Origin: a virus
Taxonomy: Duplodnaviria; Caudoviricetes
IMG/VR virus record: IMGVR_UViG_3300023174_000037
DNA length: 64,000 nt
Strand: one strand, 5' to 3'
Positions 25,025 to 57,549 of this stretch are shown here, piece after piece; positions within the stretch are counted from its first letter, which is position 1, and every line of letters begins with the position of its first letter. The position numbers and the translations under genes were made by a program. The notes below the pieces were generated by a model that saw only the letters and a program-made list of their open reading frames with translations, had not been told where the DNA came from and ran no database searches.

Positions 25025-25927
25025 TTATACGACTGGTTCTAGGGTGTATTGTTTTTTGGCTTGATTTTTGGTAACTGCAAACAACCTATTTTTATATTCT
25101 AAACTTTCTGGGCAAAATTTACACATGGTCAATTGCTCATCGATTGTGGCTAAAAATTCCGCACCACGTTCCGAATACTCGTAAGGCGATAGCGGTCGAT
25201 AGGAATTTAAAATAACTCTATCTTCGTCTGAAATATCAAATCCGTGCTGTTGATCAAACTCTGGAAATAGTGCAGCTGGTCCGCATTTATACAGCCGGCC
25301 TTTGATCATGTGATAGTTTTTATGTATGCGAAATCCGCAACTGTTGTGTGCCACATGAGGTCTACTGTTGTGTAGTGTAAACTTGCCCGTGGCATCTCGT
25401 TGAATAGCACTGTCGTAAAAATCATATTGTATCCACAGTGGTATGGCAACCTTGTTTTCGTCTATCCATGTAATGTCAGACCCAAACAAGTTACGAGGAT
25501 CGTTTTTTTCTAATTTTGTAATTGCACCTTGAAGAAACTTGTGAACTTCAGCTTCAAATTCATCAATGGTATTAGGATTGTGCCAGCTGATACCCATCCA
25601 GTTACCATTGACCCGTAAGGCTTCGTAAAGTCCCTTTACATTGTTTAGGCGTGTGCCGTTTGATAGTATCTGCACATTTCTTTTGAATATGCGATTGATT
25701 CCATAAACCCAATCAAGTATGTCCGGATTCAGCAACGGTTCGCCACCTAATATCACTATCTTGTCAACGTCAACATATTCGGCCCATTTTTCATAATCGG
25801 CTTCGTAGTCACTCCATCGTTGCCATCCAGCAAATGAATAGTTGTTAAAACGGTTACAACCTTCGCAGGTTAGATTGCAGACGTTAGTTATATAGAACTC
25901 AAGTTTTGAGAATAGGTGTTTTTTCAT
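25025..25927 (-). CDS. radical SAM enzyme
   Basis: CNLTCEGC, LGGEPLL; C-terminal Cys cluster (CGF...YKCG...CKFC). Confidence 0.9.
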   Translation of the reverse strand: MKKHLFSKLEFYITNVCNLTCEGCNRFNNYSFAGWQRWSDYEADYEKWAEYVDVDKIVILGGEPLLNPDILDWVYGINRIFKRNVQILSNGTRLNNVKGLYEALRVNGNWMGISWHNPNTIDEFEAEVHKFLQGAITKLEKNDPRNLFGSDITWIDENKVAIPLWIQYDFYDSAIQRDATGKFTLHNSRPHVAHNSCGFRIHKNYHMIKGRLYKCGPAALFPEFDQQHGFDISDEDRVILNSYRPLSPYEYSERGAEFLATIDEQLTMCKFCPESLEYKNRLFAVTKNQAKKQYTLEPVV

Positions 25928-25984
25928 AGTATAGGAAGCACCACCCGATGATTAAGTGATGTTAGATATTTACGACTAATGTGT

Positions 25985-26320
25985 TTACTGGCGACGTTTT
26001 AATGCCGCTTTGGCATTGCTGTCTACTACTGCTCTGGCTTGGTCTACACTCATGCCAGTTTCGGCTTCAGTATTGCCTTTGAAACGAACTACACCAGTGT
26101 TGGGTTCCAGTGGTTCTAATATATTACTTAGGGGTTCTTGACTGATCAAATCACCCAGATTTTCAGGAGTAACGTTGACTCCTAGACTTTTGGCCGCATC
26201 AATAAAGGCCTGTTGACTAATTTGTTTTTTGGCACTTTCATCTTCACTACGCCCAAGCAAAAACTGGCTTAATGCAGCCAGTCGTTGTGTGTTGGGATCT
26301 GCAACTTCGCGGATTAACAT
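25985..26320 (-). CDS. hypothetical protein, putative virion component
   Basis: MLIREV N-terminus; late-type box upstream of the operon. Confidence 0.65.
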   Translation of the reverse strand: MLIREVADPNTQRLAALSQFLLGRSEDESAKKQISQQAFIDAAKSLGVNVTPENLGDLISQEPLSNILEPLEPNTGVVRFKGNTEAETGMSVDQARAVVDSNAKAALKRRQ

Positions 26321-27168
26321 TATCTACGTTCGCGACCCAGGCCAGCAGGTTCAACGTTGGCATCCATCTCAGCGTCAATGTCTTCTTCGCCATCAGGTGT
26401 AGGAAGTTCAGCATCAATATCAATTTGTTCTTGACCTGGAGCAACACCCATATCATCACCAGGAACTTGCGGTGCTTGTCCGGTAACTACACCAAGTGCA
26501 GCTTCTAATTGTTGTTTAGCACCGCTTAGGTTTTGTAACAGCCCGCTTAATGCAGCACTGGCATCGCCGTTGAATTGAGTAGCTTGATCAACTCCAACTT
26601 CGTTCTTGATTTGGTCAATCAATGCAGGTAAATCTTTGAATTGCATGGCACTGACTTGTTCACTCATTTTTTGAACTTGATCAACCATGTCTTGTGCAGC
26701 CAACACCACTTGAGCTTGTTGAATTTCAGAGGCTTCACGCAAACGACGAGCGCGGCGGCCTTCTGCCATTGGGTTATTTGCTTGTTGCAAAATTTGATTT
26801 TTTTGTTGTGTTAACTCTTGAATTTGTTTTGTAATTGCAGCGGCTTGATCTTGTGCCTGTTTTTTCCTTGCGGCCATGTCCATTGCCATGTTGGCTGGAT
26901 TTGTTGCCGGAGCAGTACCGGGTGCTGTTGCAGCGGCGGCCAAGGCCTGTTCCATCATGACCAATTTTAAATATGCAGGATCACGTTCACTGCTGTGAAA
27001 AGCTGTGGTTCTACGATGTTCAGCAATTAACTTGCGAACACTCTTAAGCATGTTATGTGCTTGGCTTTTTGAAACAGTGTTAAAATTAACACGGTCACCA
27101 AAATAGCTTTCAAAAACCTTAGCGGCTTGTTGTTTCGGATTGGCTACGGCCAGTTCTTGCAGTTTCAT
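26320..27168 (-). CDS. helical coiled-coil protein, putative virion component
   Basis: 282 aa, Q/A-rich; TAAATA at 27192-27197; SD GAGGA. Confidence 0.7.
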   Translation of the reverse strand: MKLQELAVANPKQQAAKVFESYFGDRVNFNTVSKSQAHNMLKSVRKLIAEHRRTTAFHSSERDPAYLKLVMMEQALAAAATAPGTAPATNPANMAMDMAARKKQAQDQAAAITKQIQELTQQKNQILQQANNPMAEGRRARRLREASEIQQAQVVLAAQDMVDQVQKMSEQVSAMQFKDLPALIDQIKNEVGVDQATQFNGDASAALSGLLQNLSGAKQQLEAALGVVTGQAPQVPGDDMGVAPGQEQIDIDAELPTPDGEEDIDAEMDANVEPAGLGRERR

Positions 27169-27613
27169 TATGGAATCCTCGTTGTTGAATATATTTAGCC
27201 CAGTTTACGTATTTGGTTAACTGATTTTCCAGCACTTTTTTCTGTATAATCTTGCTTTCTAGCTTGGTTAGTATAATTTCACGTAAATCAGGATTTTGGC
27301 TACGATCACCAATGGCAGCTCTTGTATTAATATCATTTTTAAGTGCTGTTAATTTATTATCAGTTCTTAGTATTTCACGGGATGTATTGTAATCACGATT
27401 TTTATCGGCAATGCACCAGCTGAGTGCTGTGCGTGTGCTGCTAAAAACTCCTACTTCTGTAATGCCACAAACGACTTGATAACCACGTGATTTGGGTTGT
27501 ATTTTATAGTGCTCAAATACTTCGTAACCATCCTCACTTTGCCAGATTAAATTGGGTGCAATGCTTTTAAATTCCTGGCGGAACATGCGTTCAAACTCTT
27601 GGTCGGATTTCAT
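27119..27613 (-). CDS. hypothetical protein
   Basis: 164 aa; 50-nt 3' overlap with the next gene. Confidence 0.65.
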   Translation of the reverse strand: MKSDQEFERMFRQEFKSIAPNLIWQSEDGYEVFEHYKIQPKSRGYQVVCGITEVGVFSSTRTALSWCIADKNRDYNTSREILRTDNKLTALKNDINTRAAIGDRSQNPDLREIILTKLESKIIQKKVLENQLTKYVNWAKYIQQRGFHNETARTGRSQSETTSR

Positions 27614-27873
27614 TTTAAAACGTAGTGTGATATAAGATAAATGGTTGAAGCAAATAAAAATCCAATAATGCCAACTCCCCAGCCAATTAATCTATCAGTA
27701 TTTTTTTCACTCATTTTGCTTACACTGGCTTTGACCTCAGCAACCATTTCGCAGAGATGTGCAATATTCACACTCATAGCGGTCATTTTATCTTCTAACG
27801 CATTGTAGCGTTCAGCACACAATTCCACGTGTGCTTCAAGACTTTTCTTTTCAATATCAGTTGGCTCAACCAT
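27610..27873 (-). CDS. coiled-coil protein with a C-terminal TM helix
   Basis: Heptad region then WGVGIIGFLFASTIYLI; TAAATA at 27891-27896. Confidence 0.65.
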   Translation of the reverse strand: MVEPTDIEKKSLEAHVELCAERYNALEDKMTAMSVNIAHLCEMVAEVKASVSKMSEKNTDRLIGWGVGIIGFLFASTIYLISHYVLK

Positions 27874-27885
27874 TTGTAATCTCCA

Positions 27886-28565: not shown

Positions 28566-28611
28566 GATAGAGTATTTAAGTTATTATTGCAAGACCAGTA
28601 TTAAAGTCAAC

Positions 28612-28635
28612 AAAAAGCACCCGAAGGTGCTTTTT
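28612..28635. terminator. Rho-independent terminator, bidirectional
   Basis: AAAAAGCACC-CGAA-GGTGCTTTTT; UUCG loop on the minus strand. Confidence 0.85.
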
Positions 28636-28637
28636 AA

Positions 28638-28865: not shown

Positions 28866-28965
28866 GTTATTCTCCTGTGTAATGTGTGTGTTATCAAGTC
28901 CCGCCCTATGCAGGACAAGATTGCTACACGAGCAAGATTACTTATACTTGTAAAATCCGGTCAAT

Positions 28966-33072: not shown

Positions 33073-34200
33073 TTACCAGAATTTAGAATAAAGGTCTACT
33101 AATTCTGGAAATACTTTTTCAAAAGATTCGTTTCTTAAGGCATCAAATTTCTTTATTTCTGCCAGCATAGCTTGTATTGCAACAGGATTTTCTTTCCAAT
33201 TTGTCGGTATCAGTTCATGCTGATCAGTTTGTTTAATTAATTTTACATATTCTGCCGACATGTTTTGTAGACTAAAATCTCCAAAAGCCAAGTGTTTAGT
33301 GTGGTTAACAATGTCTCCTTCTCTATTTGTTGTAAAATTTGATTCAATCCATGTTTTAAGTTCGGTTGAGTATAATAGATTAAAAATGTTGACTGTTTCT
33401 TCTATAACAAACATTACATTTCCGGGTAAAGTTTTTCGTAAATTTAATACATTATCGACCACCTGATCCCATTTTGCTGGCCACCGTTGATATTCAAATC
33501 TATCACCTACTCCATCTAAACTTATATGTAACTTCACTAGGTGAAATTTTTCAATAATATCAAAGTTTTTAGGAAGTATTGGTTGAGTTCCATTGGTTTG
33601 AAAACACAGGGTTAATTGTTGTTTGGCATTAGGAACATTATTGCCTAGCCATTCTGCTACATCCCAATATTCTTGACCCAGTAATGTTTCGCCGCCACAA
33701 AATACCAATTGCCGTAAATTAGAAAGATCAAGTTTGGATAAAGATTCAATAACTTTGTGTTTTTTTCGTGGCGTTGTTACGGGTTGATCCCATAATCCAT
33801 GTTCTTTAAGATGTCGTTGCCAATAGGTGCTGTTATGAGTTCCGCAAATTCTACAGGCCAAATTACAACTAATATCAAACATGAGATCAATGCGTGACGG
33901 TCCTGTTGTATCATATTGTCCAAAAATATTTAGGCCTTCATTCATTCCAGTTCTAAAACTGACCTCATTTGAGGATTCTAATCTTTCACAATTTGAACAA
34001 CCAGAGTCCCATATATTTTTTTTATTGGTTTCTCTAAGTGTTTGTAATTTTTTATTCCGCCAAAAATTATGATCAATTTCCACAGGAAAAACATCATTAC
34101 GCAAACAACAATGTCTTATTATAGCTTGATTGTCAACATTGGTTGCCTTGAAATCAATATTCAACCCGCCATGTATCATTGAACAATAAAGATTGGTCAT
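33073..34200 (-). CDS. radical SAM enzyme with an N-terminal twitch/SPASM-like domain
   Basis: YC...HCC...CSNC, then CNLACRIC and GGETLL. Confidence 0.88.
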   Translation of the reverse strand: MTNLYCSMIHGGLNIDFKATNVDNQAIIRHCCLRNDVFPVEIDHNFWRNKKLQTLRETNKKNIWDSGCSNCERLESSNEVSFRTGMNEGLNIFGQYDTTGPSRIDLMFDISCNLACRICGTHNSTYWQRHLKEHGLWDQPVTTPRKKHKVIESLSKLDLSNLRQLVFCGGETLLGQEYWDVAEWLGNNVPNAKQQLTLCFQTNGTQPILPKNFDIIEKFHLVKLHISLDGVGDRFEYQRWPAKWDQVVDNVLNLRKTLPGNVMFVIEETVNIFNLLYSTELKTWIESNFTTNREGDIVNHTKHLAFGDFSLQNMSAEYVKLIKQTDQHELIPTNWKENPVAIQAMLAEIKKFDALRNESFEKVFPELVDLYSKFW

Positions 34201-35600
34201 GATTGTTTAATTTGTCCCAGTAGCTGTTTTAGTTTGGCACTTTGCACATCAGCAGTGACTTTGCTGATTTCTCCGGTATCAGCATCAACCGTTTCTTTAC
34301 TGACCATTGTGCTTTTTGCTTTGATGCTGTCAAGTAAATTACCCTTGGCAAAAGAATTAACTGGGCCAGCATCTTCGCCTGGGTCGGTGATACGCATGGT
34401 TTCAATGTTGTAGTCCAAATCAATCTTCATGCCTACACCCGTACTACTACGACTCTTCATACATTGAATTTGATACTTGCCACGTTCTTTCATGGCACGG
34501 CTGGTAAAGATACCAAACACGTTGTCAGCCGTATTAATTTTAGAGATACCACCTGAAATATGACTGTGATCAAATTCAATTTCTTCCACAGCCGATCGAT
34601 TCAACTGCGAAGCGGTTACAAACAACACATTGAGTTCTTTGGCCAAGTTACGCAATTCCTCTGAAACATACTTGTCCTTAACAAACAAATCGTTTGGGCT
34701 AACTTTGGCGCTAACCGGCATCAACAAGTCCAAGTAATCACACATGACAAAATCTATCTTGATACCTGTTTGCACTTGCACTTCTTTGATGTAACTACGG
34801 ATATCGTTGATGTTGCTTTGTGCTGGCAGGGCCTTGATACGATACTGTCCAGTTTTCTTTGAAACCAACTTAACTTTGAGTGTTGCTTGGTCAATGTCCT
34901 TGCGGATCTCCTTGGTGCTCATTCCGGCCAGCATGGCATCAGTTCTTAGGGCACACAGTTCTTCACTAAGTTCTAAACTGATATACACACCACTGAGTCC
35001 AGCCTGTAGCCAACTCAATGCTATGTTCATCATAACAAGACTTTTACCCGAACCAGATCCGCCGGCAAAGATATTGAGTTCTCCACGACTGAATCCACCA
35101 TACAAGATCTTGTCCATCTGTGGCCAACCTGTGCTTACTTGTCCGCCCGAGTTGAAGTATTTGTTAATGCGAGCACTAGGATCACTAAAGTAATCCGTAC
35201 CCATGTCTTTAGTAAGTGATATTTGTACCGCATCTTTGATTAATTTCTCTACAGGGTCATACTCGCCTTTTTCTAACAGGTCTGCACTCTTTAGAATTGC
35301 TCGTTCTAATTCTTGCCTACGAGTAAAGCCTTCAAACTCATCCATGAACCACTCAAAGTGTCCTTCGTTTAAGTCTGGAATGACATTGAGTTTAACGCCG
35401 GTGCTGGCACTGATCTGTTCTACAGTAGGCAGTGTCTTGTGTTGGTCGCTATGTTCAGCAATAAACTTGGCTGCGGGCCTCAAACTTCTATCAAAGTTTT
35501 CTGGGTTGTAAATGTTTTGAACGCGAACATAACTTTCTGCGTCTTGCAACATCATTTCTAAGAATAAGCGTTGGACATCAAGTCCGTAATCTTTTAACAA
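34197..35600 (-). CDS. replicative DnaB-like helicase (gp41-like)
   Basis: AGGSGSGKS, SLELSEE, CDYLDL, TASQLNR, KSRSSTG. Confidence 0.93.
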   Translation of the reverse strand: MLKDYGLDVQRLFLEMMLQDAESYVRVQNIYNPENFDRSLRPAAKFIAEHSDQHKTLPTVEQISASTGVKLNVIPDLNEGHFEWFMDEFEGFTRRQELERAILKSADLLEKGEYDPVEKLIKDAVQISLTKDMGTDYFSDPSARINKYFNSGGQVSTGWPQMDKILYGGFSRGELNIFAGGSGSGKSLVMMNIALSWLQAGLSGVYISLELSEELCALRTDAMLAGMSTKEIRKDIDQATLKVKLVSKKTGQYRIKALPAQSNINDIRSYIKEVQVQTGIKIDFVMCDYLDLLMPVSAKVSPNDLFVKDKYVSEELRNLAKELNVLFVTASQLNRSAVEEIEFDHSHISGGISKINTADNVFGIFTSRAMKERGKYQIQCMKSRSSTGVGMKIDLDYNIETMRITDPGEDAGPVNSFAKGNLLDSIKAKSTMVSKETVDADTGEISKVTADVQSAKLKQLLGQIKQS

Positions 35601-43986: not shown

Positions 43987-44748
43987 TTACTTACGTTCAA
44001 TATCTTCTTCGACGCAATTATTACCGTATTGTATTTCTACAATTTTTAACGGATGATCAGTTTCATTACATAACTGATGCCATTCATTACAATTGATATG
44101 TATATGAGTGTGCGGACCAAATTTGCCCAATAACTCTGCATCACTTTTTCTATTTATACCATAAACTGTAGCTGTGCCTTCGGCAACGTGCCAGTGTTCA
44201 GCGCGATCTTGATGACGTTGCATACTAAGTTGTTGGCCTGGCAATACTGTAAGTTCTTTAACTTTGGTGCCAGGCACATCATGCAATACTCGATAATATC
44301 CCCACGGGCGTTCAGTTTTAGGTGATTTCCATTCTTCTAAAATCCAACTACTGCTATTGGCTTTATTAAACCCACCAACGCCGAAAGCAAATTGCAAGTT
44401 GTTGTCATCGACGTCCATTTCTGGAATATTTGCTTGTGTGCGGTCGCCACCATTGGCAAAGATAATTTTATCATTAGGATAATGTGCTCGAACTTGCTGT
44501 AGCAAATGGCAAGCGGTTCCATCGTCATCGTCAAACGTATACACTTCGTCCACCGAGGACAAATTGTTTAGGACACACAGGCGTTCATTCCAGGGCATAA
44601 ATGCACGGCCTTTTTTACGGGCCAGCCACTCATCGCTATTGATGCCTACGATTAACAGGTCGCCCAACAAGCGGGCTTCTTTTATCATCCGGATATGGCC
44701 AGAATGTATTGGGTCAAACCCACCGCTTACTACCACTATTTTTTTCAT
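43987..44748 (-). CDS. cytidylyltransferase (HIGH-type) fused to a mannose-6-phosphate isomerase-like cupin
   Basis: SGGFDPIHSGH...GINSD...KKG; C-terminal RPWGYY...LSMQRHQDRAEHW; TATAAATA at 44754-44761. Confidence 0.88.
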   Translation of the reverse strand: MKKIVVVSGGFDPIHSGHIRMIKEARLLGDLLIVGINSDEWLARKKGRAFMPWNERLCVLNNLSSVDEVYTFDDDDGTACHLLQQVRAHYPNDKIIFANGGDRTQANIPEMDVDDNNLQFAFGVGGFNKANSSSWILEEWKSPKTERPWGYYRVLHDVPGTKVKELTVLPGQQLSMQRHQDRAEHWHVAEGTATVYGINRKSDAELLGKFGPHTHIHINCNEWHQLCNETDHPLKIVEIQYGNNCVEEDIERK

Positions 44749-44766: not shown

Positions 44767-45516
44767 TTAAACGGCCATGCTTAATAAACTACCGTCAATC
44801 CAAGGAACGACTAAATCCTGTTGTCTCAGAGCACTGTGGGCATAAATGCTTTTTACAGCAGACTGGGGCAACAGATTCTGTTCTACCAGTGTGTGCCAAC
44901 TGATGTCTTGTGGATTTTGCGGAGGTTGACTACTTTTGTAAACCACTGCATGTATCCATGGCTCTGTAAGTGTTTGTTTAAAAAACCCAGCGCCGCAGTC
45001 CCATCCGGCTGTGGCCAACATATACATAAGACTGACCATGGTGTGATGATAGTAGTGCCCATTGGGCAACACATACGAAAGTTGTCGACGATGTATTTGT
45101 TGAGTCACTGGCACAGTTAGTGATAACATGCCGCCTGGGCTAGCAATATGCCACCAATTACTCAGTGTTTGTATTGGATTGATGGCACACTGAAACGCAT
45201 CGTGGCACCATAACACATCAAACCCATCAGCTGGGGCAGTTATTTTATTTTCAAAATTAACTTGCTGATATGTTATGTTTTCGTACCTAGCAGCAACTGA
45301 CAAGTTTTCATGTAGGTCAACACCATGACATTCAATGTTTAACGGTTGATGATCATCTTCTCGGGTTGTTCGTGTGGCCCACCAAACTAAATCATCGCCG
45401 TGTCCGCATCCAAGATCAACTACGGTGCGTAAACTGAACATAAAATCATCATGCTCAAATAATTGATTCAGCGTTTCAAGACTATGCTGATGGCTATGTC
45501 CCGGCTGTGTAAACAT
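44767..45516 (-). CDS. class I SAM-dependent methyltransferase
   Basis: VVDLGCGHG, FDVLWCHD, PGGML. Confidence 0.85.
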   Translation of the reverse strand: MFTQPGHSHQHSLETLNQLFEHDDFMFSLRTVVDLGCGHGDDLVWWATRTTREDDHQPLNIECHGVDLHENLSVAARYENITYQQVNFENKITAPADGFDVLWCHDAFQCAINPIQTLSNWWHIASPGGMLSLTVPVTQQIHRRQLSYVLPNGHYYHHTMVSLMYMLATAGWDCGAGFFKQTLTEPWIHAVVYKSSQPPQNPQDISWHTLVEQNLLPQSAVKSIYAHSALRQQDLVVPWIDGSLLSMAV

Positions 45517-45968
45517 TATACCTGCACATCCTCCATACCAGCGGCCCGTAATCTTACAATATGACCGAGCATAAAGTTTTTACTTTCCATTCCTTTAAGA
45601 ATGCCCAAAAATCGATTACGTAGCAATGCAACTTCATTGATCAACGTTTCAAATTCAATAACTTCGTCTTCACCATCAACATACTTTTCAGCGTCACGGC
45701 TGGTCAATGCTCGAGCATAGCCTTCAAGATATTTTTGAAAATGTTTGCGGCGTATTTTACGTAACTGTATATTGAGGTAGTTCAATACCGCTTCAATTTC
45801 TTGCAACTGGTTAAACCTGTGTTCTGTAATCCCTGGCAAAGCTGTAATATTTTTTTCAATAAGTCCGCCAACTCGACAGTCACGTTTGGCTTCATCAAGT
45901 TCTTGTTCATAATGAGTAATAAAATCAGGTATATTACTTAGATCAGCTACAACTTTGCTATACCACAT
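45516..45968 (-). CDS. uvsY: recombination mediator UvsY-like
   Basis: YLEGYARALTSRDAEKYVDGEDEV...KNFMLGHIVRLRAAG; located near recA. Confidence 0.75.
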   Translation of the reverse strand: MWYSKVVADLSNIPDFITHYEQELDEAKRDCRVGGLIEKNITALPGITEHRFNQLQEIEAVLNYLNIQLRKIRRKHFQKYLEGYARALTSRDAEKYVDGEDEVIEFETLINEVALLRNRFLGILKGMESKNFMLGHIVRLRAAGMEDVQV

Positions 45969-46233: not shown

Positions 46234-47292
46234 TTATTCCTCCGTTGCTGTTTCTTCAGTGGTTACTGTTTCTTTTTGATTTTTAAAATCTAACATTACT
46301 TGATCTAAACATCCGCCTTCGTTACTTTCCCAAGCCTTGCGGAACTGTTTAATTATCTCACCTTCGCTGGTGACAAACATTAAGCGATTTCCATCTTTTT
46401 TAAGAATGCCTTTTTTCTCTGCTAGATCAGTTAATCCACTGTAAGGGTTCATACCTGTTTCGTACGGAATCTTAACCTGCATGCCTTCAAATGGTTTTGC
46501 GTAACGAGTTTTCATTACTTTACAGCCAGCGCGGATACCCATGACTTCACTAATCTTATTGCCATCCTCGTCTTCTTTAAGCTTCATTTTCTTCATGGCA
46601 ACCACAATGCTAGACGCATAGATAAATCCTTGACCACCGGAGATCTTGTCATCTGGGTCAAACATATCCTGACTGGCGTAAGTATGATTCGTACAAACCA
46701 TACCTACATTATAGCCGCCAAACATATTGACTGAATTGCGAACCAGTGCTGTCAATGCTTTAGGCTTGCGACCCATGTCGCCTTTCATGTCGCCTGCTTC
46801 AAACTGATTCACGTCAGTTGGAGTAAGCAACATACCCAACGAGTCAATAACCCACAACACCTTCATGCGCTCGCCATCCGGTAATGCTTTGTAATCAATC
46901 ATAAATGTTGAAATAGCTTTGGCTACATCGTCAATCATGCTCATGTTTAATTTAAGTAACTTGTCCGGGCCGGTGTCTACGCCAAGTGCATGAAGCCATG
47001 TTTCATCCAGGGCGTTTTCTGTATCAACTAGGATAACAAAAATACCTTGCTCTTGTGCATTTTTAACAATGTTGCCACTGCAAATGTAACTTTTACCTGC
47101 ACCGGATTCGCCGGCAAATACTGTAATCTTACCCAGTGGAATACCGCGATTAAAATCTCCGCTGATAAGATAATTCAAGGCAAAGTTGCCTGTTGAGATC
47201 CAGTCAGTTGGATCGTTAAATCCAATGCTTAGGCCTTCAATGCTTTTGGTGATGTCCTTACGGAACTTGCTGATGTCAAATGGTTTTGCCAT
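46234..47292 (-). CDS. uvsX: RecA/UvsX recombinase
   Basis: GESGAGKS, DTENA, VIDSLG, NHTY, SGG...YASS. Confidence 0.93.
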   Translation of the reverse strand: MAKPFDISKFRKDITKSIEGLSIGFNDPTDWISTGNFALNYLISGDFNRGIPLGKITVFAGESGAGKSYICSGNIVKNAQEQGIFVILVDTENALDETWLHALGVDTGPDKLLKLNMSMIDDVAKAISTFMIDYKALPDGERMKVLWVIDSLGMLLTPTDVNQFEAGDMKGDMGRKPKALTALVRNSVNMFGGYNVGMVCTNHTYASQDMFDPDDKISGGQGFIYASSIVVAMKKMKLKEDEDGNKISEVMGIRAGCKVMKTRYAKPFEGMQVKIPYETGMNPYSGLTDLAEKKGILKKDGNRLMFVTSEGEIIKQFRKAWESNEGGCLDQVMLDFKNQKETVTTEETATEE

Positions 47293-47294: not shown

Positions 47295-48449
47295 TTACTT
47301 TCCTTCTTTAAGTTTGTATAATTCTGTAAAAATTTTACTGCTGTCTACTCCGCGCCTCTGATCCATTACGGCTAATTGTTCAAAAGAATTTGACAAATTC
47401 TTTTCAATTGGTTGTCTTATGTAGTGTAACATATTTCGATAACTATCTTCAAGTAGATATCCTGGATTCTCGTTGATTTTTGATTCCAATTTTAACTTTA
47501 ACAAGTGTAACACATTTTCTGGTAAATTCCTAATGTTTAGGTAATCAGGAGTTAGTAGTGCTCCGATGATAAAACTATTATTATGAAATCCTAGGCCTTT
47601 AAGGTAATCCACATACCCAAATACACTATTGTAATTTAACAAAAACCATAACATATTAAAACTTATCTTATGATCAAGTTGTCTAATTGTGTTCAAATTA
47701 TCTAAAAAATCCTGCCATCGGCCTCCAAAGCGTATGTATTCAAATTCATCTTCTATGGTTTCTGCACTCACAGTCCAGTGAACATTTTTAAAACTGCATA
47801 CAGCATCAAACACTCCGGTATCGACTTTGCTAAGATTAGTGTTTATCCTGAGATTAACATCGGGATTTAATTCTTTGAGTAGTTCTAAATTTTCCTTCAT
47901 CAACAATGGTTCACCGCCGGCTAGATACACATGCTTAAGATTTTTAGCGTGTCGGTAAAGATATTCTCTAAAATCTTTCTGTTGTTGTTCTGTTGGTGTC
48001 GCCCTAATAACATTTAATTCGCTGGCCCACTTACTACTGAAATCTGGGCCACAATAAACACAGGCAAAATTACACAAATTGGTCCATCGTACATCAATGG
48101 TTTGTAAATCAAAATTGTTAGGTCGGTAAGTATCCAGTGGTGTTTTTTTAAATTCTCTTATATAAAAAATTCTATCACTGATAATATCAAAACCTTCTTT
48201 ACCGTGTTCTAGATTGTAACAAGTGTGACAGCCGGCAGCTGGTTGATTATTAATTATATTAGTTTGTTTAGTGACATTAACAGGTCCTAACAGTATTTCT
48301 TCAATGGTGTTGTCTTTGATATTACCCAATCCACCAGTTGTAAAATCACTACGAATACAATTTTTTACTTTGCCATCAAAGTTATACATTAGTCCTGTCC
48401 ACGGCATAGGACAAAAATGTTTATTTGTTAGAATATCTTTTGGATTCAT
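47295..48449 (-). CDS. radical SAM enzyme with an N-terminal twitch/SPASM-like domain
   Basis: FCPMPW...NC...CHTC, then CNFACVYC and GGEPLL. Confidence 0.9.
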   Translation of the reverse strand: MNPKDILTNKHFCPMPWTGLMYNFDGKVKNCIRSDFTTGGLGNIKDNTIEEILLGPVNVTKQTNIINNQPAAGCHTCYNLEHGKEGFDIISDRIFYIREFKKTPLDTYRPNNFDLQTIDVRWTNLCNFACVYCGPDFSSKWASELNVIRATPTEQQQKDFREYLYRHAKNLKHVYLAGGEPLLMKENLELLKELNPDVNLRINTNLSKVDTGVFDAVCSFKNVHWTVSAETIEDEFEYIRFGGRWQDFLDNLNTIRQLDHKISFNMLWFLLNYNSVFGYVDYLKGLGFHNNSFIIGALLTPDYLNIRNLPENVLHLLKLKLESKINENPGYLLEDSYRNMLHYIRQPIEKNLSNSFEQLAVMDQRRGVDSSKIFTELYKLKEGK

Positions 48450-48991
48450 TGATTCATTGGTCCTAATGATATTTCTGGAATTGATAAATTATTATTCTTG
48501 GCCATGTCGAATAAATTTAACAATGTTCTAGCCCAGTTGTTGACATCAGCAGCTGGTGGCGTTGTTTTGTCAGGGCTAGTAGCAATGTTGCCAGGACGAA
48601 CTATAGTAATTTTTACTTTAAGTTTACGATGTCGTATTTGCCGCACTGCTTCTTCTAAAGTAACTTTTTGCAAACGGTAATGATCCATGCTTAGATCAGT
48701 CAACGACGACACTGGTTCTTGTGTCATCATAGTTGAAATTACTATGATATGCTTTTTAGTTCCCTGCCAACGATTGGACATTTCAAACAACAACTCAGTT
48801 TGTGCATATCCGGCTTGTGCGTTGTTGACAAAAACATCGCAAGGTTCAATTTGATCACAAATTTTAGGAGTGTTGCGAATATTGTTGCCTTCACGCTGAC
48901 TAAGGCCAACTACTTCGTTGCCGCCGAGAACATATTCTTTAGCAAGAGCTTGTCCTATGCCTGCGGTGTGTCCGGTAATTGCTATTTTCAT
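48446..48991 (-). CDS. short-chain dehydrogenase/reductase
   Basis: ITGHTAGIG, VNNA, YxxxK (YRLQK), RPG. Confidence 0.85.
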   Translation of the reverse strand: MKIAITGHTAGIGQALAKEYVLGGNEVVGLSQREGNNIRNTPKICDQIEPCDVFVNNAQAGYAQTELLFEMSNRWQGTKKHIIVISTMMTQEPVSSLTDLSMDHYRLQKVTLEEAVRQIRHRKLKVKITIVRPGNIATSPDKTTPPAADVNNWARTLLNLFDMAKNNNLSIPEISLGPMNQ

Positions 48992-49863
48992 GATATGCCT
49001 CTTAGTTGTTTTTGTTTTGCTATATATTCATCTCTAGCACGAACATCAGTATTATCAACACTTAACTCAAAAGGCATTTTTAAGTAAGCGTAACTATGAT
49101 CAATGTTGTGTTCTCGAGCAAACTGTTGAATATTTGGCAGGTCGTCTACATTCAGTATACTAACTGTTGTCCATAAATTCAATGTTACTGGCATTGTTTT
49201 GTATGTCATTAAATTACGATAAAAATCTTGCCATGGTATTGGCCAACGCACAAAATCATGAACTGCTCCAATACCATCACAACTCACTGTGACAGTGACT
49301 TCGATGCCACAATTGGCTATGTCGACCAGCTCAGTCAATATTGTGCTACAATTTGTATTAAGTCGCAGTGTTTTAAGGTTAGGTGGTAAATTTTTTAATA
49401 GTTTCTTGTAATTTTTACTGTAACTGGGTTCGCCACCGTTAATATCCAGATGCACGATTCGTTCTTGTGGTAGGCGCCAGAATTGATCTGTGTTATTGAT
49501 TATAGGAAATCCAGGACCCGTTAAACTTCCTATTCTGGTGCTTAAATTTTGATTACAAGTTTGGCAAGCGGCATTACATAAATTATCTAATACACCACCA
49601 ACTTGCAGGTAATCTCTCTGTGCAGTTTGCTCATCCACTGCTGTTGCATATACTCTTATGCTGTCAGGTTCGGTTTCTTGACATCTGACACATTCTTTGG
49701 GCCAGCGGTCAAACTTCATTAACTCTTTTGTATTTGCTAACCAAGAACTTGCCTCCATATCTGCCAATGAAGCATATTGTGGAGGATTGACCATGTGTCC
49801 ACAGCGACTAACTGTGCCATTGGGATTAAAACGAACAAAATGGTCTAGTCTAGGACAATACAT
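48988..49863 (-). CDS. radical SAM enzyme with an N-terminal twitch-like domain
   Basis: YCP...RC...CVRC, then CNAACQTC and GGEPS. Confidence 0.88.
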   Translation of the reverse strand: MYCPRLDHFVRFNPNGTVSRCGHMVNPPQYASLADMEASSWLANTKELMKFDRWPKECVRCQETEPDSIRVYATAVDEQTAQRDYLQVGGVLDNLCNAACQTCNQNLSTRIGSLTGPGFPIINNTDQFWRLPQERIVHLDINGGEPSYSKNYKKLLKNLPPNLKTLRLNTNCSTILTELVDIANCGIEVTVTVSCDGIGAVHDFVRWPIPWQDFYRNLMTYKTMPVTLNLWTTVSILNVDDLPNIQQFAREHNIDHSYAYLKMPFELSVDNTDVRARDEYIAKQKQLRGIS

Positions 49864-50509
49864 AAGTTGGATTTAAAATTTGTTGTGAGTATTCAATTAC
49901 ATATTCGTATGCCGCGGGATCAATGGTTTTAACCTGTTGCAATAGTTGTTTAAATGTTAGTGATTGTCCTATGCATTTAAATATTGCTGTGTCTATCCGT
50001 TGATACATTTCATTATTTTTTATTGATGAAATTTTTTCTATCAATGCCGAATCGGGTCGAGGAACTCCGTCGGGTTTTATATTTTTTCCAGTAATTTCTT
50101 CAATGGCTGACATTGGTAATAAGTTTAGTGTTGCATTCAAACTCAAATATCTTGCTAAATTTAGTAGCCAAACAAACTGTGAAGCATAATGGCGATCCAA
50201 CGATATATAATTTAAACCAAACCATTCTACTGTATTTTTATCAAGACCCGGGTTATCTCTAAGTGTATGTTGTATAAATGTATTGATCCCAGAAAGTAAT
50301 CGGTCCTCAGGATTTCGTATGATTACATCGATACTGCTTATTTTTTGAATCTGTTCATTGATGTGAATTCGTTGAGGGTCTGTTGTTCTAGACACATTAA
50401 TACTACTGTGCCCATTTTTAAAAATAACATAGACATACCGCTGCAAGGATATGATTTCTCTTACCTCACAGCGGTCTGGGAACAACATGCGATCTAAATG
50501 CGATAACAT
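49850..50509 (-). CDS. sulfotransferase-family-like protein
   Basis: IFKNGHSS (5'-PSB-like), IRNPEDRLLSG (3'-PB-like), DRHYASQ. Confidence 0.6.
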   Translation of the reverse strand: MLSHLDRMLFPDRCEVREIISLQRYVYVIFKNGHSSINVSRTTDPQRIHINEQIQKISSIDVIIRNPEDRLLSGINTFIQHTLRDNPGLDKNTVEWFGLNYISLDRHYASQFVWLLNLARYLSLNATLNLLPMSAIEEITGKNIKPDGVPRPDSALIEKISSIKNNEMYQRIDTAIFKCIGQSLTFKQLLQQVKTIDPAAYEYVIEYSQQILNPTYVLS

Positions 50510-50512: not shown

Positions 50513-51499
50513 TTACGCTTTTTGACGGGCCCTAATCATTGCCAAGATGTCTTGTGCCTTGTCGCTAGAAGCTGGTTTAGCCACTACCGGAGCAGTTGCC
50601 ACTAGTGGCTCTTCGTCGTCAAAGTCACTAGATGCTGACGGTGCTGGAGCCGCTGTTGCTGTTGGTGCTGGAGCACTTTCGGCAACAGTAGCACTAGAAC
50701 CTGCAGGAGCATTAACACCTGCTGGGCGGAAATACTGACCCCAACGTTCTGTATCATAGCTTTGGCCATCAACACTTGCTTCAAACATTTCTTTGATGAC
50801 TTTGAGCTCAACTTCGCCTGGTTTCTTGGGCATAAATGTGCTCAAGTCAAACAAGCCATGTTTCTCAATTGCAGCTTGTTCAGCTTCGGTCAGTGCTGTT
50901 TCTTTACGAGCCCACTTGCTACCATTGTAGTCAGCAAAACCACCTTTGCTACCTTTGCTGATACGGAAGTCCAGGCCACGTAGATAGTCAGTTGGCAATT
51001 CTTCCAACTCTGGATCCATCAACGCACCTTTGATAGTGGTAAAGATTTGAGGACCAATGATGAATCTACGAATTGGATTCTCTGGGGTTTTGTCATCGCC
51101 AAGTGGGTTCTCACGCACAAAGCCTTGGAAAATGTAACTGCGTTTTTTCCAATACTTACGACCCATTTCTTCAAGGCTCTTGTCCTTAAACCAAGTGCGA
51201 ACTTCAGTAAGCACTGGACAAGTTTCTTGCCACATTTCCACGCATGGAACTTGGACGTATACTTGTTTGGATTCCATTTCACCTTTGACGCCATTGAATG
51301 GCAAACGAATCATTGCTCGTTCTTGCCAAAAGAATGTGTTCTTGGTGTTGCCGTCTGGAAGGAATCGGAGTGTTGCGGAAGCGCCTTCTTCCATGTTCCA
51401 GTGTGGGTAAATTGCATTATCGCCACCTGTGGAATTGCCGCCTTGTTTGTTACCTTCTGATTGTGCGAGTCTCGCACGGATGTCTGCTAAAGATGCCAT
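50513..51499 (-). CDS. single-stranded DNA-binding protein (gp32-like)
   Basis: LRFLP, PCVEMW...CPV, YWKKRSY, GLDFRISK, YNGSKW; acidic/Ala-rich tail. Confidence 0.88.
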   Translation of the reverse strand: MASLADIRARLAQSEGNKQGGNSTGGDNAIYPHWNMEEGASATLRFLPDGNTKNTFFWQERAMIRLPFNGVKGEMESKQVYVQVPCVEMWQETCPVLTEVRTWFKDKSLEEMGRKYWKKRSYIFQGFVRENPLGDDKTPENPIRRFIIGPQIFTTIKGALMDPELEELPTDYLRGLDFRISKGSKGGFADYNGSKWARKETALTEAEQAAIEKHGLFDLSTFMPKKPGEVELKVIKEMFEASVDGQSYDTERWGQYFRPAGVNAPAGSSATVAESAPAPTATAAPAPSASSDFDDEEPLVATAPVVAKPASSDKAQDILAMIRARQKA

Positions 51500-54855: not shown

Positions 54856-54865
54856 AGTAGTGTAT

Positions 54866-56431
54866 TTAGCGCCTTACGCTGATGAACGGCATAGGAGGAA
54901 TTATATTATCTCCGTGGTCTCTTAGCTGGGTATCGATGCTGTTATCATAGGTTTGTAACAGTTGTAGCATACGCACCGTCAGCACTGTGGCCATTACTAG
55001 GTCGTCAGTTTCACCTATTTTGGCCGCATAACTTACACCGGCAGCCACAAAGGTTTTAAGCTCGCTGACCATGCTTGCACTACGTATTTTCATGCGACCG
55101 GATTCAATCAAGGTTTTTAATTTGTTACAGGCCGCCAGCTTGGGTTTATTTGTAGTATTAAATCCTTTGCGGTATCGTCTATTTCCACCCGAGTGTGGAT
55201 CGCTTAAAAAGTAGCCTTGTATGTTTTCTTCGCCATATTCATCGATACTGATCAAGGCAGCTTCACCAATGGTATTGTTTTCTATACTAAAATATATTCG
55301 TTGTGGGTCTTTGACTGTTTCGTTTATGTGAGCACAGATGCTGGCCAATATACGAACCTGTTCAGGTATGGGTGTTCTGTTATGACGCCATTCGGCCACT
55401 TGTTCTGTGGTTTCTGCTTCAAATATTTGTATAGCGGCTGCATCCCCACCCGTGCCTAAGCTAGGATCAAGACCAATCACATAGGTACGTCCTGCTCGGG
55501 GTCGTTGATACCATCGAACTTGTCCAGTTTTATACAAGGGTTCATGTCCTTGTAGATCAATAAGTTTAGCAGGAGCAATCAAGGTTTCATCATTGATGAT
55601 GAATTCACAACCCATTTCTCGACGGAAACGATCTTCACCTAACTGTGCTCGCTGTTCGCTGGCCCACTTTTCATCACGATCTGGATGTTCATTCCAGTAG
55701 CTACGATAACTCTTAAATCCATTGATGCCAACGTCAGTAGGATTGCCAAATTCGTCCTCGCACTTGAGAGCACCTTTCCAAAGCAGGGCAAACTGATCTT
55801 CGTCTGAGTTCGGAGTGCTAGTGATAATTGCCTTACCACCAGTGGCCAACGTAGGACTGATACTAGTCCAGAACTCTTTGGCAATGCCAGGGCGCACGAA
55901 CGCAAACTCGTCACAGTATAGTAAGGATATACTCATACCGCGTCCGGTATTTTCTGTTGTGGTGGTCGAAACTATGCGACTTCCGTTTTCAAAGTCTAGA
56001 TTGCCTTTGTTGTAACTGGTAACACCGGCACGTATATGATCTGGGCACAACTCGTACGCATAGCGAATACGTTGCATGATTTCTTGTGAGCCGGTGTATT
56101 TGTGTGCGGCAATAAGGATTGTGCTGTCAGGGCGAAACATGGCCACCCATAACAGATATCCAGCGGCACTGGTTGATTTACCAGTTTGTCGAGGCATCAT
56201 ACTGATACTGAATCGATAGTTGTGGTAAGTGTCTATCAGTCGCTTTTGATAGTCAAACGGATGATACAGCATCTTGCCCTTGACCGGATGCTGTATATGG
56301 AAGAAGTTGTCCATAAAGTATTGTGGCCCAGTAACAGGGTCAGCGCATTTTACAAACTCCTCCAACTGTTGATCCGTGAAGGCTGTCTTCTTGTATGGTG
56401 TTTTAACTAAAGTTGATTCGGTTTGGCTCAT
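54866..56431 (-). CDS. terminase large subunit (gp17-like)
   Basis: PRQTGKS, YCDEFAF, ITSTPN, IGLDPS, DDLVMA. Confidence 0.95.
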   Translation of the reverse strand: MSQTESTLVKTPYKKTAFTDQQLEEFVKCADPVTGPQYFMDNFFHIQHPVKGKMLYHPFDYQKRLIDTYHNYRFSISMMPRQTGKSTSAAGYLLWVAMFRPDSTILIAAHKYTGSQEIMQRIRYAYELCPDHIRAGVTSYNKGNLDFENGSRIVSTTTTENTGRGMSISLLYCDEFAFVRPGIAKEFWTSISPTLATGGKAIITSTPNSDEDQFALLWKGALKCEDEFGNPTDVGINGFKSYRSYWNEHPDRDEKWASEQRAQLGEDRFRREMGCEFIINDETLIAPAKLIDLQGHEPLYKTGQVRWYQRPRAGRTYVIGLDPSLGTGGDAAAIQIFEAETTEQVAEWRHNRTPIPEQVRILASICAHINETVKDPQRIYFSIENNTIGEAALISIDEYGEENIQGYFLSDPHSGGNRRYRKGFNTTNKPKLAACNKLKTLIESGRMKIRSASMVSELKTFVAAGVSYAAKIGETDDLVMATVLTVRMLQLLQTYDNSIDTQLRDHGDNIIPPMPFISVRR

Positions 56432-57549
56432 AATATACTTGCTAGCTCAGGCCATAATTGTTCAAAGCGACCTATCATACTAGAATGATATTTACTTTCA
56501 ATTTCAGCAATGTGATTTATAAATTCTGGTAAGACATTGTTATTGGCCTGCTGATGTCGGGATTCGGTCTCTTGTAAGAAGTTACGTTGGGCATGATCCA
56601 AATTGTGATTACTCAATACTTTTTGTAATTCTTTAAGAGCCAACTGTCTAACATCAGGTCCAAGTTGTAAGGGATCTAAATAGGCTGGATGATACAGGCT
56701 TTGCCAATGCACAGGCACATTGGCATCATGTGCCCAAGAAATCAATTCAGATAGTCTAGTAGCATTGTAAATGTTGTAAAGCGGATGTATGCCTAATCTA
56801 TGTCCTGAGCAGGCCTGTATTGCTTTGATGTTGCGTTCAATTTGATTCCATGTACCGCCATAGCGCACATATTCAAATCTATCGCCTGTGTTGTCAATGC
56901 TGATGTTCCAACCAACACGCTGACGTTCGGCCAGTTTGGCAAATATTTTGTTAGTGCTCAAGTCTACCCCAAGGTTGGTTATAACGTCAACTTGGCAATC
57001 CACAGGAATTGCATCCAACAAGCGTTCGTTTTCTTTCAGCAACAGGGGTTCGCCACCAATTAGAGCCACTTTCTTAATGTGGGCTTGATGCTGTTCAAGA
57101 TAGTCGCATACCTGGTCTGAGTAGGGTCTAGTGCCCGACTGCACTGATAACTGTTTTAAACTGGCCCACTGACTGCTGCTGTGTTCATTGCAATAGTTAC
57201 AGCTGAAATTGCAAGTGGTGTTCCAGCGTATATCAATCAGCACCGGATGATGTTCTGTATCTGTGGCTTGGCCGGCATCAAAGCCAGGATTTATTCTGTT
57301 GTGCCAATCACGTTCGCTACGACCATAACGCTCGGCCTGCACACAATTGTGGCAATACTGGGCATGTGGGCGGCCTTCACGCAGGGTTTGTCTGACTTCT
57401 TGTAGGGCAGAGCCGTGTAGAATCTCCTCAATAGTTTGGCTGTTTAAGTTGCCCAACATATTAGGATCACCTGCACAACAGGTTTTGACACTGCCTTGTG
57501 GATTGATGTGCAAGCCCCTCCATGGAGCTGCACACAAGAAGTTGCTCAT
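56428..57549 (-). CDS. radical SAM enzyme with an N-terminal twitch/SPASM-like domain
   Basis: LCAAPWRGLHINPQGSVKTCC...CHNC, then CNFSCNYC and GGEPLL. Confidence 0.9.
   Translation of the reverse strand: MSNFLCAAPWRGLHINPQGSVKTCCAGDPNMLGNLNSQTIEEILHGSALQEVRQTLREGRPHAQYCHNCVQAERYGRSERDWHNRINPGFDAGQATDTEHHPVLIDIRWNTTCNFSCNYCNEHSSSQWASLKQLSVQSGTRPYSDQVCDYLEQHQAHIKKVALIGGEPLLLKENERLLDAIPVDCQVDVITNLGVDLSTNKIFAKLAERQRVGWNISIDNTGDRFEYVRYGGTWNQIERNIKAIQACSGHRLGIHPLYNIYNATRLSELISWAHDANVPVHWQSLYHPAYLDPLQLGPDVRQLALKELQKVLSNHNLDHAQRNFLQETESRHQQANNNVLPEFINHIAEIESKYHSSMIGRFEQLWPELASIL

Follow-up and report, generated by a model that had tools for sequence, protein, structure and literature searches.

Five dispersed radical SAM genes and their neighbours

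The window considered here, that is, the whole stretch of 64,000 nt that was analysed, belongs to an uncultured jumbo phage of fresh water with a T4-like build. It carries five intact radical SAM open reading frames on its minus strand (P0001 to P0005, hereafter P1 to P5; Table 1), all of them with the CxxxCxxC and GGE motifs, as the preliminary description had reported. In a motif scan of all window ORFs of at least 60 aa, CxxxCxxC was confined to these five genes and to one 69-aa antisense ORF, which we take to be spurious. The Pfam Radical_SAM model (PF04055, threshold 29.5 bits) scores 36–55 bits in all but P4, which falls below the threshold at 14.7 bits and nevertheless retains both motifs.

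Table 1. Radical SAM genes of the window, with adjacent and partner genes, and the evidence for each assignment
Feature	Position	Strand	Evidence
Phage IscA, downstream of P0001	24266-24586	-	Fe-S_biosyn E 7.5e-19
Phage IscU, downstream of P0001	24586-24963	-	NifU_N E 4e-53
P0001, 300-aa radical SAM enzyme, core then C-terminal four-Cys twitch	25025..25927	-	Pfam Radical_SAM 43.8 bits
P0002, N-terminal-twitch radical SAM enzyme	33073..34200	-	NF033640 180 bits; 4-nt overlap with end of DnaB gene
DnaB-like replicative helicase, upstream of P0002	34197..35600	-	DnaB_C E 4.8e-21; phrog_19 E 1.5e-71
RfaE-domain-II-like nucleotidyltransferase fused to mannose-6-P-isomerase-type cupin	43987..44748	-	TIGR02199 E 2.6e-21; TIGR01479 C-terminus E 3.9e-21; Pfam CTP_transf_like and MannoseP_isomer
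Class I SAM methyltransferase	44767-45516	-	Methyltransf_31/12/23
UvsY-like mediator	45516-45968	-	phrog_231 E 1.7e-15
UvsX/RecA-type recombinase, downstream of P0003	46234..47292	-	RecA E 1.2e-14; phrog_97 E 2.8e-66
P0003, N-terminal-twitch radical SAM enzyme, 2 nt upstream of uvsX	47295..48449	-	NF033640 245 bits
Mini-SDR, 181-aa minimal short-chain dehydrogenase/reductase, fixed partner of P0003	48446..48991	-	SDR matches
P0004, short 291-aa N-terminal-twitch radical SAM enzyme	48988..49863	-	NF033640 121.8 bits; all motifs
o219, 219-aa sulfotransferase-like protein, fixed partner of P0004	49850..50509	-	Atlas leads; conserved residues
gp32-type single-strand DNA-binding protein, first in the P4/P3 string	50513..51499	-	phrog_1192 E 3.6e-68
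T4-type large terminase (TerL), downstream of P0005	54866..56431	-	Terminase_6N and 6C; phrog_36964 E 1.8e-116
P0005, N-terminal-twitch radical SAM enzyme	56428..57549	-	NF033640 228.7 bits; 4-nt overlap with terL start

The tight junctions of P2, P3 and P5 with the helicase, uvsX and terL genes are as described earlier (Table 1), and P1 is flanked by gaps of 57 and 61 nt. Such abutment to core genes is not special: of the 83 pairs of neighbouring genes in the window, 46 overlap or are separated by no more than 10 nt. Co-expression with core genes had been drawn solely from this packing, which is the rule throughout the genome and by itself says little; the linkage is better backed by a gene order conserved across the clade. 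The proposal of a diversified paralog family fits the four genes P2 to P5, which are old paralogs with 24–29% pairwise identity. In the phylogeny the five genes do not group together as recent copies, and P3 and P5 are sisters, each lineage having orthologs of its own among the relatives.

A twitch domain ahead of the radical SAM core

As had also been noticed, four of the five proteins (P2 to P5) carry a Cys domain ahead of the core (C13, C31, C74 and C77 in P3 numbering), followed in all four by C126, C130 and C133 of the core itself. This reversed layout, presented earlier as unusual, already defines a curated family, NCBIfam NF033640 (N_Twi_rSAM, 'twitch domain-containing radical SAM protein'), whose cut-off of 170 bits is exceeded over the full length by P3, P5 and P2. 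P4 remains below this cut-off (E 3.7e-35, profile positions 11–335 of 398) and is therefore filed as a shortened relative and not as a member: compared with typical NF033640 proteins it is shorter and lacks the C-terminal helical part, and it has intact orthologs in 80 loci, at 40–96% identity.

Profile alignment identifies the Cys domain at the N-terminus as a bona fide twitch in swapped order. Positions 6–84 of the NF033640-family profile align to residues 166–249 of BtrN, its C-terminal twitch (E 6e-9), with a counterpart for each of the four Cys, and positions 105–216 align to BtrN residues 7–113. Pfam SPASM is called in the N-terminal region of two of the four proteins (residues 6–77; in P5, residues 6–69), and the four auxiliary Cys are invariant or nearly so across 47 diverse NF033640 members. 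As only four conserved auxiliary Cys, and not the seven of the SPASM motif, are found in these 47 members and in the family of P1, the domain is a twitch and not a full SPASM domain. BtrN (2-deoxy-scyllo-inosamine dehydrogenase of butirosin biosynthesis; PDB 4M7S/4M7T), the founding twitch enzyme, differs from the phage N-twitch proteins in bearing the homologous domain last instead of first; similarity in the core is weak (12 bits), and the phage proteins have about 90 extra helical residues at the C-terminus. The auxiliary cluster of BtrN, which catalyzes a two-electron oxidation, has four Cys ligands, whereas that of MoaA has three and an open iron site, and the auxiliary cluster of the phage enzymes is predicted to be fully Cys-ligated, as in BtrN (PMC9012708).

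NF033640 is very large: a single query reaches about 2,700 clusters (50% identity) with an E value of at most 1e-10. Lake jumbo phages have 8–13 copies over the cut-off per genome, and 14–16 matches at a looser threshold; cultivable carriers of the family include the KVP40/nt-1 group and RsoM2USA. The five dispersed genes are a subset of the full radical SAM complement of the phage, as related near-complete genomes carry 8–13, including a tandem array in two relatives of the same clade (G001 and G002) that have 8–13 NF033640 copies each. In contrast to these arrays of the same family, the window's five genes lie outside any array, scattered singly or in two-gene cassettes.

P1 has the BtrN/SpeY-type layout, core first and four-Cys twitch at the C-terminus, the order that is reversed in the four N-twitch proteins. 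Its family keeps C17, C21 and C24 in the core and C197, C215, C269 and C272 in the C-terminal part invariant. Over its full length, the AlphaFold2 model of P1 (pLDDT 88) most closely resembles SpeY, a twitch dehydrogenase (TM 0.63, E 9e-11), with MoaA well behind in second place at a TM of about 0.33; the top match of the PDB sequence-profile search is likewise SpeY (E 1.2e-5). SpeY (spectinomycin biosynthesis; PDB 7WZV/7WZX/7X0B) shares with P1 its length, domain order and four C-terminal Cys, at an identity of only 15–17%; P1 itself belongs to a phage-only family, fixed upstream of IscU-IscA.

Conserved slots and fixed partners

Each of the five genes occupies a slot that is conserved across a large clade of freshwater jumbo phages, and this conservation, together with the tie of a SpeY-like enzyme to IscU-IscA, is new here. 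P2 follows DnaB, the order primase-DnaB-P2 being kept in 26 of 29 related loci, and P5 lies upstream of TerL in 79 of 80 (the TerL of the window is 53.6% identical to that of phage PA5oct). Among the 34 related loci having downstream sequence, P1 is followed by IscU in all and by IscA in 33. The remaining slot reads gp32, sulfotransferase-like gene and P4, 181-aa mini-SDR and P3, UvsX; gaps along this string, which gp32 opens, do not exceed 26 nt, and the pairs mini-SDR plus P3 and o219 plus P4 hold even where their order is swapped between gp32 and uvsX (loci L203–L208). The methyltransferase is kept in all five relatives with enough downstream DNA, and the RfaE-II/PMI-cupin fusion in only two of the five.

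The mini-SDR scores far under the SDR family cut-offs and is about 70 residues below the usual length, and yet presents the classical SDR motif set: among 14 orthologs, TGxxxGIG (T6, G7, G11, I12, G13), NNAQ (N56, N57, A58, Q59), S86, Y105xxxK109 and PG (P133, G134) show no or almost no variation. For o219, no match was found in Pfam, PHROG, NCBIfam or PDB-profile searches; Atlas feature and structure leads, with no profile match behind them, point to Sulfotransfer_2, NKWYS and Sulfotransfer_1 clusters. Its invariant residues are K31, G33, R65, P67, R70 and S73, of which K31/G33 and R65/P67/R70/S73 presumably correspond to the PAPS-binding 5'-PSB and 3'-PB motifs.

Possible substrates and chemistry

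On what do these enzymes act? They are extremely improbable as borrowed host housekeeping enzymes, such as the NrdG activase, QueE, MoaA or a viperin-like nucleotide dehydratase. Weak partial matches to the corresponding models (viperin_w_prok 33–41, MoaA 31–34, NrdG2 about 30 and QueE 29–37 bits) lie in the CxxxCxxC/GGE region and span just about 90–170 core residues, the full-length match being NF033640. The best scores for NrdG, QueE, MoaA and viperin are 30, 37, 34 and 41 bits, against cut-offs of 131, 260, 284 and 180, respectively, so that the clustering with NrdG, QueE or MoaA that the preliminary description had named as refuting its proposal is not found; nor does the window show NrdD, queCDF or moa genes next to the five.

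The best explanation, to which we give a probability of about 0.5, is that the enzymes oxidise or tailor a sugar, cyclitol or nucleotide-sugar by radical chemistry. Domain composition, family membership, fold similarity and the conservation of gene order and partners are direct observations, from which the kind of chemistry and the substrate class are deduced. A sugar-type substrate is favoured over virion proteins or nucleotides because of the mini-SDR, sulfotransferase-like and methyltransferase partners, the likeness of P1 to SpeY and the BtrN-like twitch. The earlier claim that no substrate is identifiable therefore stands only in part: these partners and the SpeY/BtrN likeness narrow the class. 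Likewise, of the virion proteins, glycans or nucleotides proposed as targets, the sugar-type option is retained and the two others become less favoured. In addition, the core of P3 (AlphaFold2 model, pLDDT 95) has its best structural match in BlsE (Z 12.3), with MoaA and SkfB at about the same level; BlsE is a twitch enzyme that acts on a nucleoside sugar.

In this explanation all five are twitch-type enzymes, each with one [4Fe-4S] cluster that cleaves SAM and a second, auxiliary [4Fe-4S] cluster on four cysteines, the auxiliary domain having moved to the N-terminus in four enzymes and retained its usual C-terminal place in the fifth. The 5'-deoxyadenosyl radical would remove a hydrogen from the sugar, cyclitol or nucleotide-sugar, and, in the manner of the dehydrogenases BtrN and SpeY, the fully ligated auxiliary cluster would accept the second electron. 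A functional pairing of each enzyme with its fixed neighbour is proposed: the mini-SDR may re-reduce the keto product of P3, or reduce it with the opposite stereochemistry, and the sulfotransferase-like o219 may decorate the product of P4, with a methyltransferase and, in this phage, a putative sugar-phosphate nucleotidyltransferase/isomerase in the same gene string. The demand for so many Fe-S clusters would be covered by the phage's own IscU and IscA. Several points count against a sugar-type substrate: the core matches of the N-twitch enzymes are generic (SkfB is top in sequence, and Foldseek TM values are about 0.4), no glycosyltransferase adjoins any of the five genes, the sulfotransferase reading of o219 draws on language-model and structure leads and motif residues while profile searches gave no match, a literature search found no paper or experiment characterising NF033640, and the array of a Bdellovibrio-like MAG consists almost wholly of radical SAM genes, with no telling partners.

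The immediate neighbours of the five genes are DNA-metabolism and packaging genes, which fits the sugar-type reading poorly and could instead mean that the enzymes modify DNA or nucleotides, for example by tailoring a hypermodified base or a base-attached sugar, which would account for their placement. All five lie in DNA-metabolism strings conserved clade-wide (primase-DnaB-P2; gp32...P4, P3-UvsX-UvsY; P1-IscU-IscA-dCMP deaminase-PD-(D/E)XK nuclease; NS endonuclease-P5-TerL), and phage pathways of thymidine hypermodification are known to include radical SAM enzymes. We nevertheless consider this unlikely: tight packing and mixed gene order are general in this genome, the QueE, NrdG, MoaA and viperin models stay far under their cut-offs, NF033640 is expanded in Bdellovibrio-like bacteria, in arrays for which no link to DNA metabolism was found, and we know of no counterpart of the sulfotransferase-like partner in DNA modification.

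Most SPASM/twitch enzymes of known function modify proteins or peptides, and the five could similarly cross-link, epimerise or otherwise modify phage proteins, such as virion or head-internal ones. The best PDB sequence match of the core is the sactipeptide maturase SkfB (E 1.5e-14), whose twitch also aligns to the phage N-terminal domain, followed by TigE, and CteB, SuiB and anSME are among the top Foldseek matches. P5 lies within the packaging and structural block, and both the gene preceding P1 and the 82-aa gene that follows P2 have homologs in PHROGs annotated as virion structural proteins, the latter of which also counts against a sugar-type substrate; the 82-aa product has no Cys, and in many relatives an extra gene of about 1.1 kb intervenes. 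A maturase role is nonetheless doubtful. Pfam and NCBIfam scans, which a divergent recognition element could escape, gave no match to an RRE/PqqD-type recognition domain in any of the five, and the search for conserved co-occurring peptides suggested earlier turned up no conserved Cys-rich or leader-bearing small ORF beside them. Unlike the maturases SkfB, CteB, SuiB and anSME, the phage enzymes have neither a recognisable RRE nor an associated precursor peptide, and their domain order is reversed; they have one auxiliary cluster (four Cys), and the SPASM maturases, SkfB excepted, two. The strictly retained partners, moreover, are of small-molecule type (SDR, sulfotransferase-like, methyltransferase).

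The genomic placement could also be brought together with sugar chemistry if the enzymes and their partners owed their position in operons for replication, recombination and packaging to a substrate that is produced or used at those sites, be it a sugar on modified phage DNA that is tailored by radical chemistry, or an aminocyclitol-like small molecule packaged with the DNA. This combination appears to us a long shot; if true, it would represent a radical SAM chemistry so far undescribed for viruses. Sugar chemistry as favoured above would extend the phage repertoire to the tailoring of glycans or cyclitols by radical chemistry, and an action on DNA or virion proteins would be newer still. Some NF033640 copies in lake jumbo phages are placed as stably as terminase or helicase, and testable units are at hand (the mini-SDR with P3, the sulfotransferase-like protein with P4, the SpeY-like enzyme with IscU/IscA, and the orthogroup upstream of TerL), which are small, defined targets for enzymologists. 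Two further contexts of the family speak for sugar chemistry: the tandem array of G001 adjoins a NodU/CmcH-type carbamoyltransferase, and in another phage a GDP-mannose-dehydratase-type epimerase is encoded two genes downstream of an NF033640 member.

Radical SAM genes and their domain order

The window comes from an uncultured phage of T4-like build, and is 95% coding on a single strand, with 84 minus-strand ORFs. The five radical SAM genes recognized in the preliminary description, P0001 to P0005 (P1 to P5), are real and were accurately described: all are intact and carry both CxxxCxxC and GGE motifs, and a CxxxCxxC scan of all window ORFs of at least 60 aa yielded no other plausible gene. 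Four of the five pass the Pfam Radical_SAM threshold; P4 matches this profile weakly (14.7 bits), and matches the NCBIfam family NF033640 (N_Twi_rSAM) with an E-value of 3.7e-35.

Radical SAM genes, partner genes and core genes of the window
Feature	Coordinates	Strand	Length (aa)	Remark
P0001 (P1)	25025-25927	minus	300	radical SAM
P0002 (P2)	33073-34200	minus	375	radical SAM, N-twitch
P0003 (P3)	47295-48449	minus	384	radical SAM, N-twitch
P0004 (P4)	48988-49863	minus	291	radical SAM, N-twitch
P0005 (P5)	56428-57549	minus	373	radical SAM, N-twitch
Mini-SDR	48446-48991		181	all classical SDR motifs kept
o219	49850-50509		219	sulfotransferase-like (Atlas leads)
DnaB-type helicase	34197-35600
Toprim primase
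UvsY-like mediator	45516-45968
UvsX recombinase	46234-47292
gp32-type SSB	50513-51499
T4-type large terminase (TerL)	54866-56431
NS endonuclease

An auxiliary cysteine domain ahead of the core had been noted in four genes, and P2 to P5 indeed share four N-terminal cysteines, which do not vary across these paralogs and which, in a set of 47 diverse relatives, are either invariant or at least 90% conserved, while P1 has the ordinary domain order with four invariant C-terminal cysteines. A profile built for the family aligns to the twitch dehydrogenase BtrN in two pieces of swapped order: positions 6-84 match the BtrN twitch (166-249; E 6e-9) with all four cysteines aligned, and positions 105-216 match its core (7-113). 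The N-terminal of these two pieces also aligns with the C-terminal twitch of the sactipeptide maturase SkfB, and by these profile alignments the N-terminal domain of P2 to P5 is a twitch domain. SPASM/twitch domains are described as C-terminal extensions; BtrN, which carries out a two-electron oxidation, has four cysteine ligands on its auxiliary cluster, whereas MoaA has three and an open iron site (PMC9012708). With four cysteines, the phage enzymes thus resemble BtrN in this respect, although their twitch comes first and that of BtrN is C-terminal.

This reversed order is not a discovery, since it is already catalogued: NF033640, an uncharacterised family, has exactly the twitch-then-core layout, and its curated cut-off is passed by P2, P3 and P5, but not by P4. 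This is a large family, with 7,371 clusters (50% identity) at E <= 0.001 and 2,677 at E <= 1e-10, and our literature search found no paper on it, nor anything relevant on N-terminal twitch/SPASM families, phage or Bdellovibrio radical SAM expansions, or SpeY. Among cultivated phages, only distant members (about 24% identity in the P5 search) were found, in KVP40/nt-1-type Vibrio phages and RsoM2USA. Three Bdellovibrio-like MAGs harbor 5-14 copies each, with no informative partner genes found in the Bdellovibrio-like array, and a Legionellales-labelled MAG (L090/G009) harbors 12. The latter has an array resembling those of phages and a copy 45% identical to P3, and its contigs may be phage sequence binned with a bacterium. 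Several metagenomic proteins of 790-1106 aa (P0147, P0174, P0187, P0196, P0218, P0226 and P0240) contain two or three separate stretches matching P3, an arrangement suggestive of tandem fusions of family members.

Conserved positions and paralogy

The window phage has close relatives in freshwater metagenome contigs of up to 345 kb. Among 50,697 isolated phages, neither the nucleotide sequence of the region nor P3 (by tblastn) had a match, and the nearest isolate by TerL, the Pseudomonas jumbo phage PA5oct (53.6% identity), has no radical SAM gene before terL.

Gene order was checked by tblastn on related loci fetched from IMG/VR. In 79 of 80 loci, terL has a P5 ortholog (54-91% identity) shortly before it, often separated from it by one or two further genes (about 180-260 aa). 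The order primase-DnaB-P2 is kept in 26 of 29 loci, and two further loci have another family member (29% identity to P2) between primase and DnaB. About 70 loci share the order gp32-o219-P4-SDR-P3-UvsX, where SDR is a short-chain dehydrogenase/reductase; in the most distant group (L203-L208; P4 identity of 40-44%) it becomes gp32-SDR-P3-o219-P4-UvsX, and the mobile units are thus the pairs SDR+P3 and o219+P4. Finally, P1, at identities down to 46%, is followed by IscU in all 34 loci with downstream sequence and then by IscA in 33 of them, a few with an inserted gene ahead. New in the window is the finding that, in a widespread clade of lake phages, several lineages of the family are core-like genes that stay in place, keep fixed partners and sit between genes for replication, recombination and packaging, and also that a SpeY-like enzyme is tied to phage Fe-S assembly genes.

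The extra genes between P5 and terL (L024, L025, L030, L035, L040, L050) encode 246-259-aa proteins sharing the motif FNSxGFRxxEFD, together with proteins of 182-198 aa; two of these inserted proteins (L040, L050) had no Pfam match. In four other loci (L032, L034, L037, L061), the TerL match breaks off about 825-900 nt in, with about 1.7 kb to the start of the next conserved gene, suggestive of an insertion in terL (intein, intron or homing endonuclease).

The overlap or near-abutment with helicase, recA and terL, from which co-expression had been argued, is a weak indication of linkage, since in more than half of all adjacent gene pairs of the window the two genes overlap or are separated by at most 10 nt. 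In our scans, the late-promoter word TATAAATA, sigma-70-like sites and terminator-like sites were not more frequent than expected by chance, and no claim is therefore made on timing or transcription units. Short exact contigs of a lake metatranscriptome library (X14) cover P3, the SDR gene, P4, uvsX and neighbours, and none covers P5; as this run was picked using the same stretch, and RNA libraries can contain DNA, they give only a weak hint that P3, SDR and P4 are transcribed, and the lack of contigs elsewhere is given no weight.

The view of a diversified paralog family holds for the four N-twitch genes, which are old paralogs with pairwise identities of 24-29%. The maximum-likelihood tree, built from the window copies and those of three related phage genomes (G001, G002, G004) and one Bdellovibrio-like MAG, groups P5 with TerL-adjacent copies from three other genomes (support 100) and P3 with its own counterparts (96-100), P3 and P5 being sister to each other (95); P4 forms a pair with the counterpart from G004, and P2 forms a long isolated branch. 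G001 (320 kb) and G002 (332 kb) are nearly complete, and their P5 orthologs share 55-56% identity with P5. They carry 8-13 members above cut-off, about seven of which form a tandem array whose copies correspond one-to-one between the two genomes. The five genes of the window are a subset of the radical SAM complement of the phage. The G001 array adjoins a NodU/CmcH-type carbamoyltransferase and is preceded by a protein with a weak match to a tail-spike chaperone domain; none of the GT2 glycosyltransferase genes of the relatives adjoins an array.

The complement varies even among near relatives: a 345-kb ENA relative (L001) has, between methyltransferase and DEAD-box helicase, several small genes and an extra 507-aa radical SAM gene (16427-17950) that are absent from the window.

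Partner genes and predicted chemistry

P1 belongs to a large, phage-only family (1,613 homologs found). The best fold match to its AF2 model (pLDDT 88) is the twitch dehydrogenase SpeY, which aligns along the whole length (TM 0.63, E 9e-11); MoaA comes next, with a TM of about 0.33. SpeY is also the best PDB profile match of P1. Downstream of P1 lie IscU (E 4e-53) and IscA, and in this stretch (23832-24963) they are followed, with overlaps of 4 and 8 nt, by a dCMP/cytidine deaminase (145 aa, E 1.7e-21) and a PD-(D/E)XK nuclease (237 aa), thus uniting Fe-S assembly and nucleotide-metabolism genes in one string.

The mini-SDR beside P3 keeps TGxxxGIG, NNAQ, Ser86, Tyr105-x3-Lys109 and PG invariant in 14 orthologs (identity down to 47%). 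It is about 70 residues shorter than usual, the missing residues belonging to what is usually the substrate-binding part, and this length is conserved throughout the clade. A complex prediction with P3 scored 0.00, which speaks neither for nor against binding. Beside P4, o219 had no match in profile searches, including profile against PDB; the Atlas clusters closest to it in features and in structure are, among others, Sulfotransfer_2, NKWYS ('capsular polysaccharide synthesis') and Sulfotransfer_1, and its invariant residues K31/G33 and R65/P67/R70/S73 presumably fit two PAPS-binding motifs, which makes a putative sulfotransferase a lead. The same tightly packed string includes a class I methyltransferase (kept in five of five relatives) and an RfaE-domain-II-like nucleotidyltransferase fused to a PMI-type cupin (two of five).

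With a probability of about 0.5, the enzymes are predicted to oxidise a sugar, cyclitol or nucleotide-sugar, or to tailor it in a related way, by a radical-initiated reaction. This prediction draws on the auxiliary cluster, which is of BtrN type and fully ligated, on the resemblance of the P1 fold to SpeY, on the SDR, sulfotransferase-like and methyltransferase genes as fixed partners, on the carbamoyltransferase adjoining the array, and on the top structural match of the P3 core, BlsE, a twitch enzyme acting on a nucleoside sugar (Z 12.3, on a plateau). Foldseek (PDB, Swiss-Prot) and VIA-align searches with the P3 model returned generic radical SAM cores and no specific functional neighbour. 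The radical SAM enzymes would oxidise or tailor the sugar-type substrate by radical chemistry, the neighbouring partner enzymes would carry out the next step on the product, and the phage IscU/IscA would supply clusters.

Maturation of a protein or peptide would account for SkfB as best core match and for virion-protein homologs beside P1 and P2, but it appears unlikely, given a single auxiliary cluster and the absence of an RRE domain and of a precursor peptide. The genomic setting would suit a modification of DNA or nucleotides, a reading we hold to be similarly improbable, as the enzymes lack similarity to known ones of that type. Housekeeping roles (NrdG, QueE, MoaA, viperin) are excluded as far as curated cut-offs show; clustering with NrdG, QueE or MoaA, which the preliminary description had named as counting against its own proposal, was not found.

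Two genes match virion-structural PHROGs, namely an 82-aa gene after P2 (32800-33048; E 1.7e-16) and a 282-aa gene two genes upstream of P1 (26320-27168; E 4.4e-18), and both sit within strings of replication-type genes. A 524-aa protein (21514-23088) combines an Mtd_N-like N-terminus with a pectate-lyase/rhamnogalacturonase-type beta-helix, and is likely a tail spike or polysaccharide depolymerase. Another phage (L004-L006), with a family member 37% identical to P3, has three scattered radical SAM genes among rubrerythrin, peroxiredoxin, a SET-domain protein, a GDP-mannose-dehydratase-type epimerase, GTP cyclohydrolase I, IMP dehydrogenase and a queuosine-precursor transporter, and its oxidative-stress genes may protect Fe-S enzymes.
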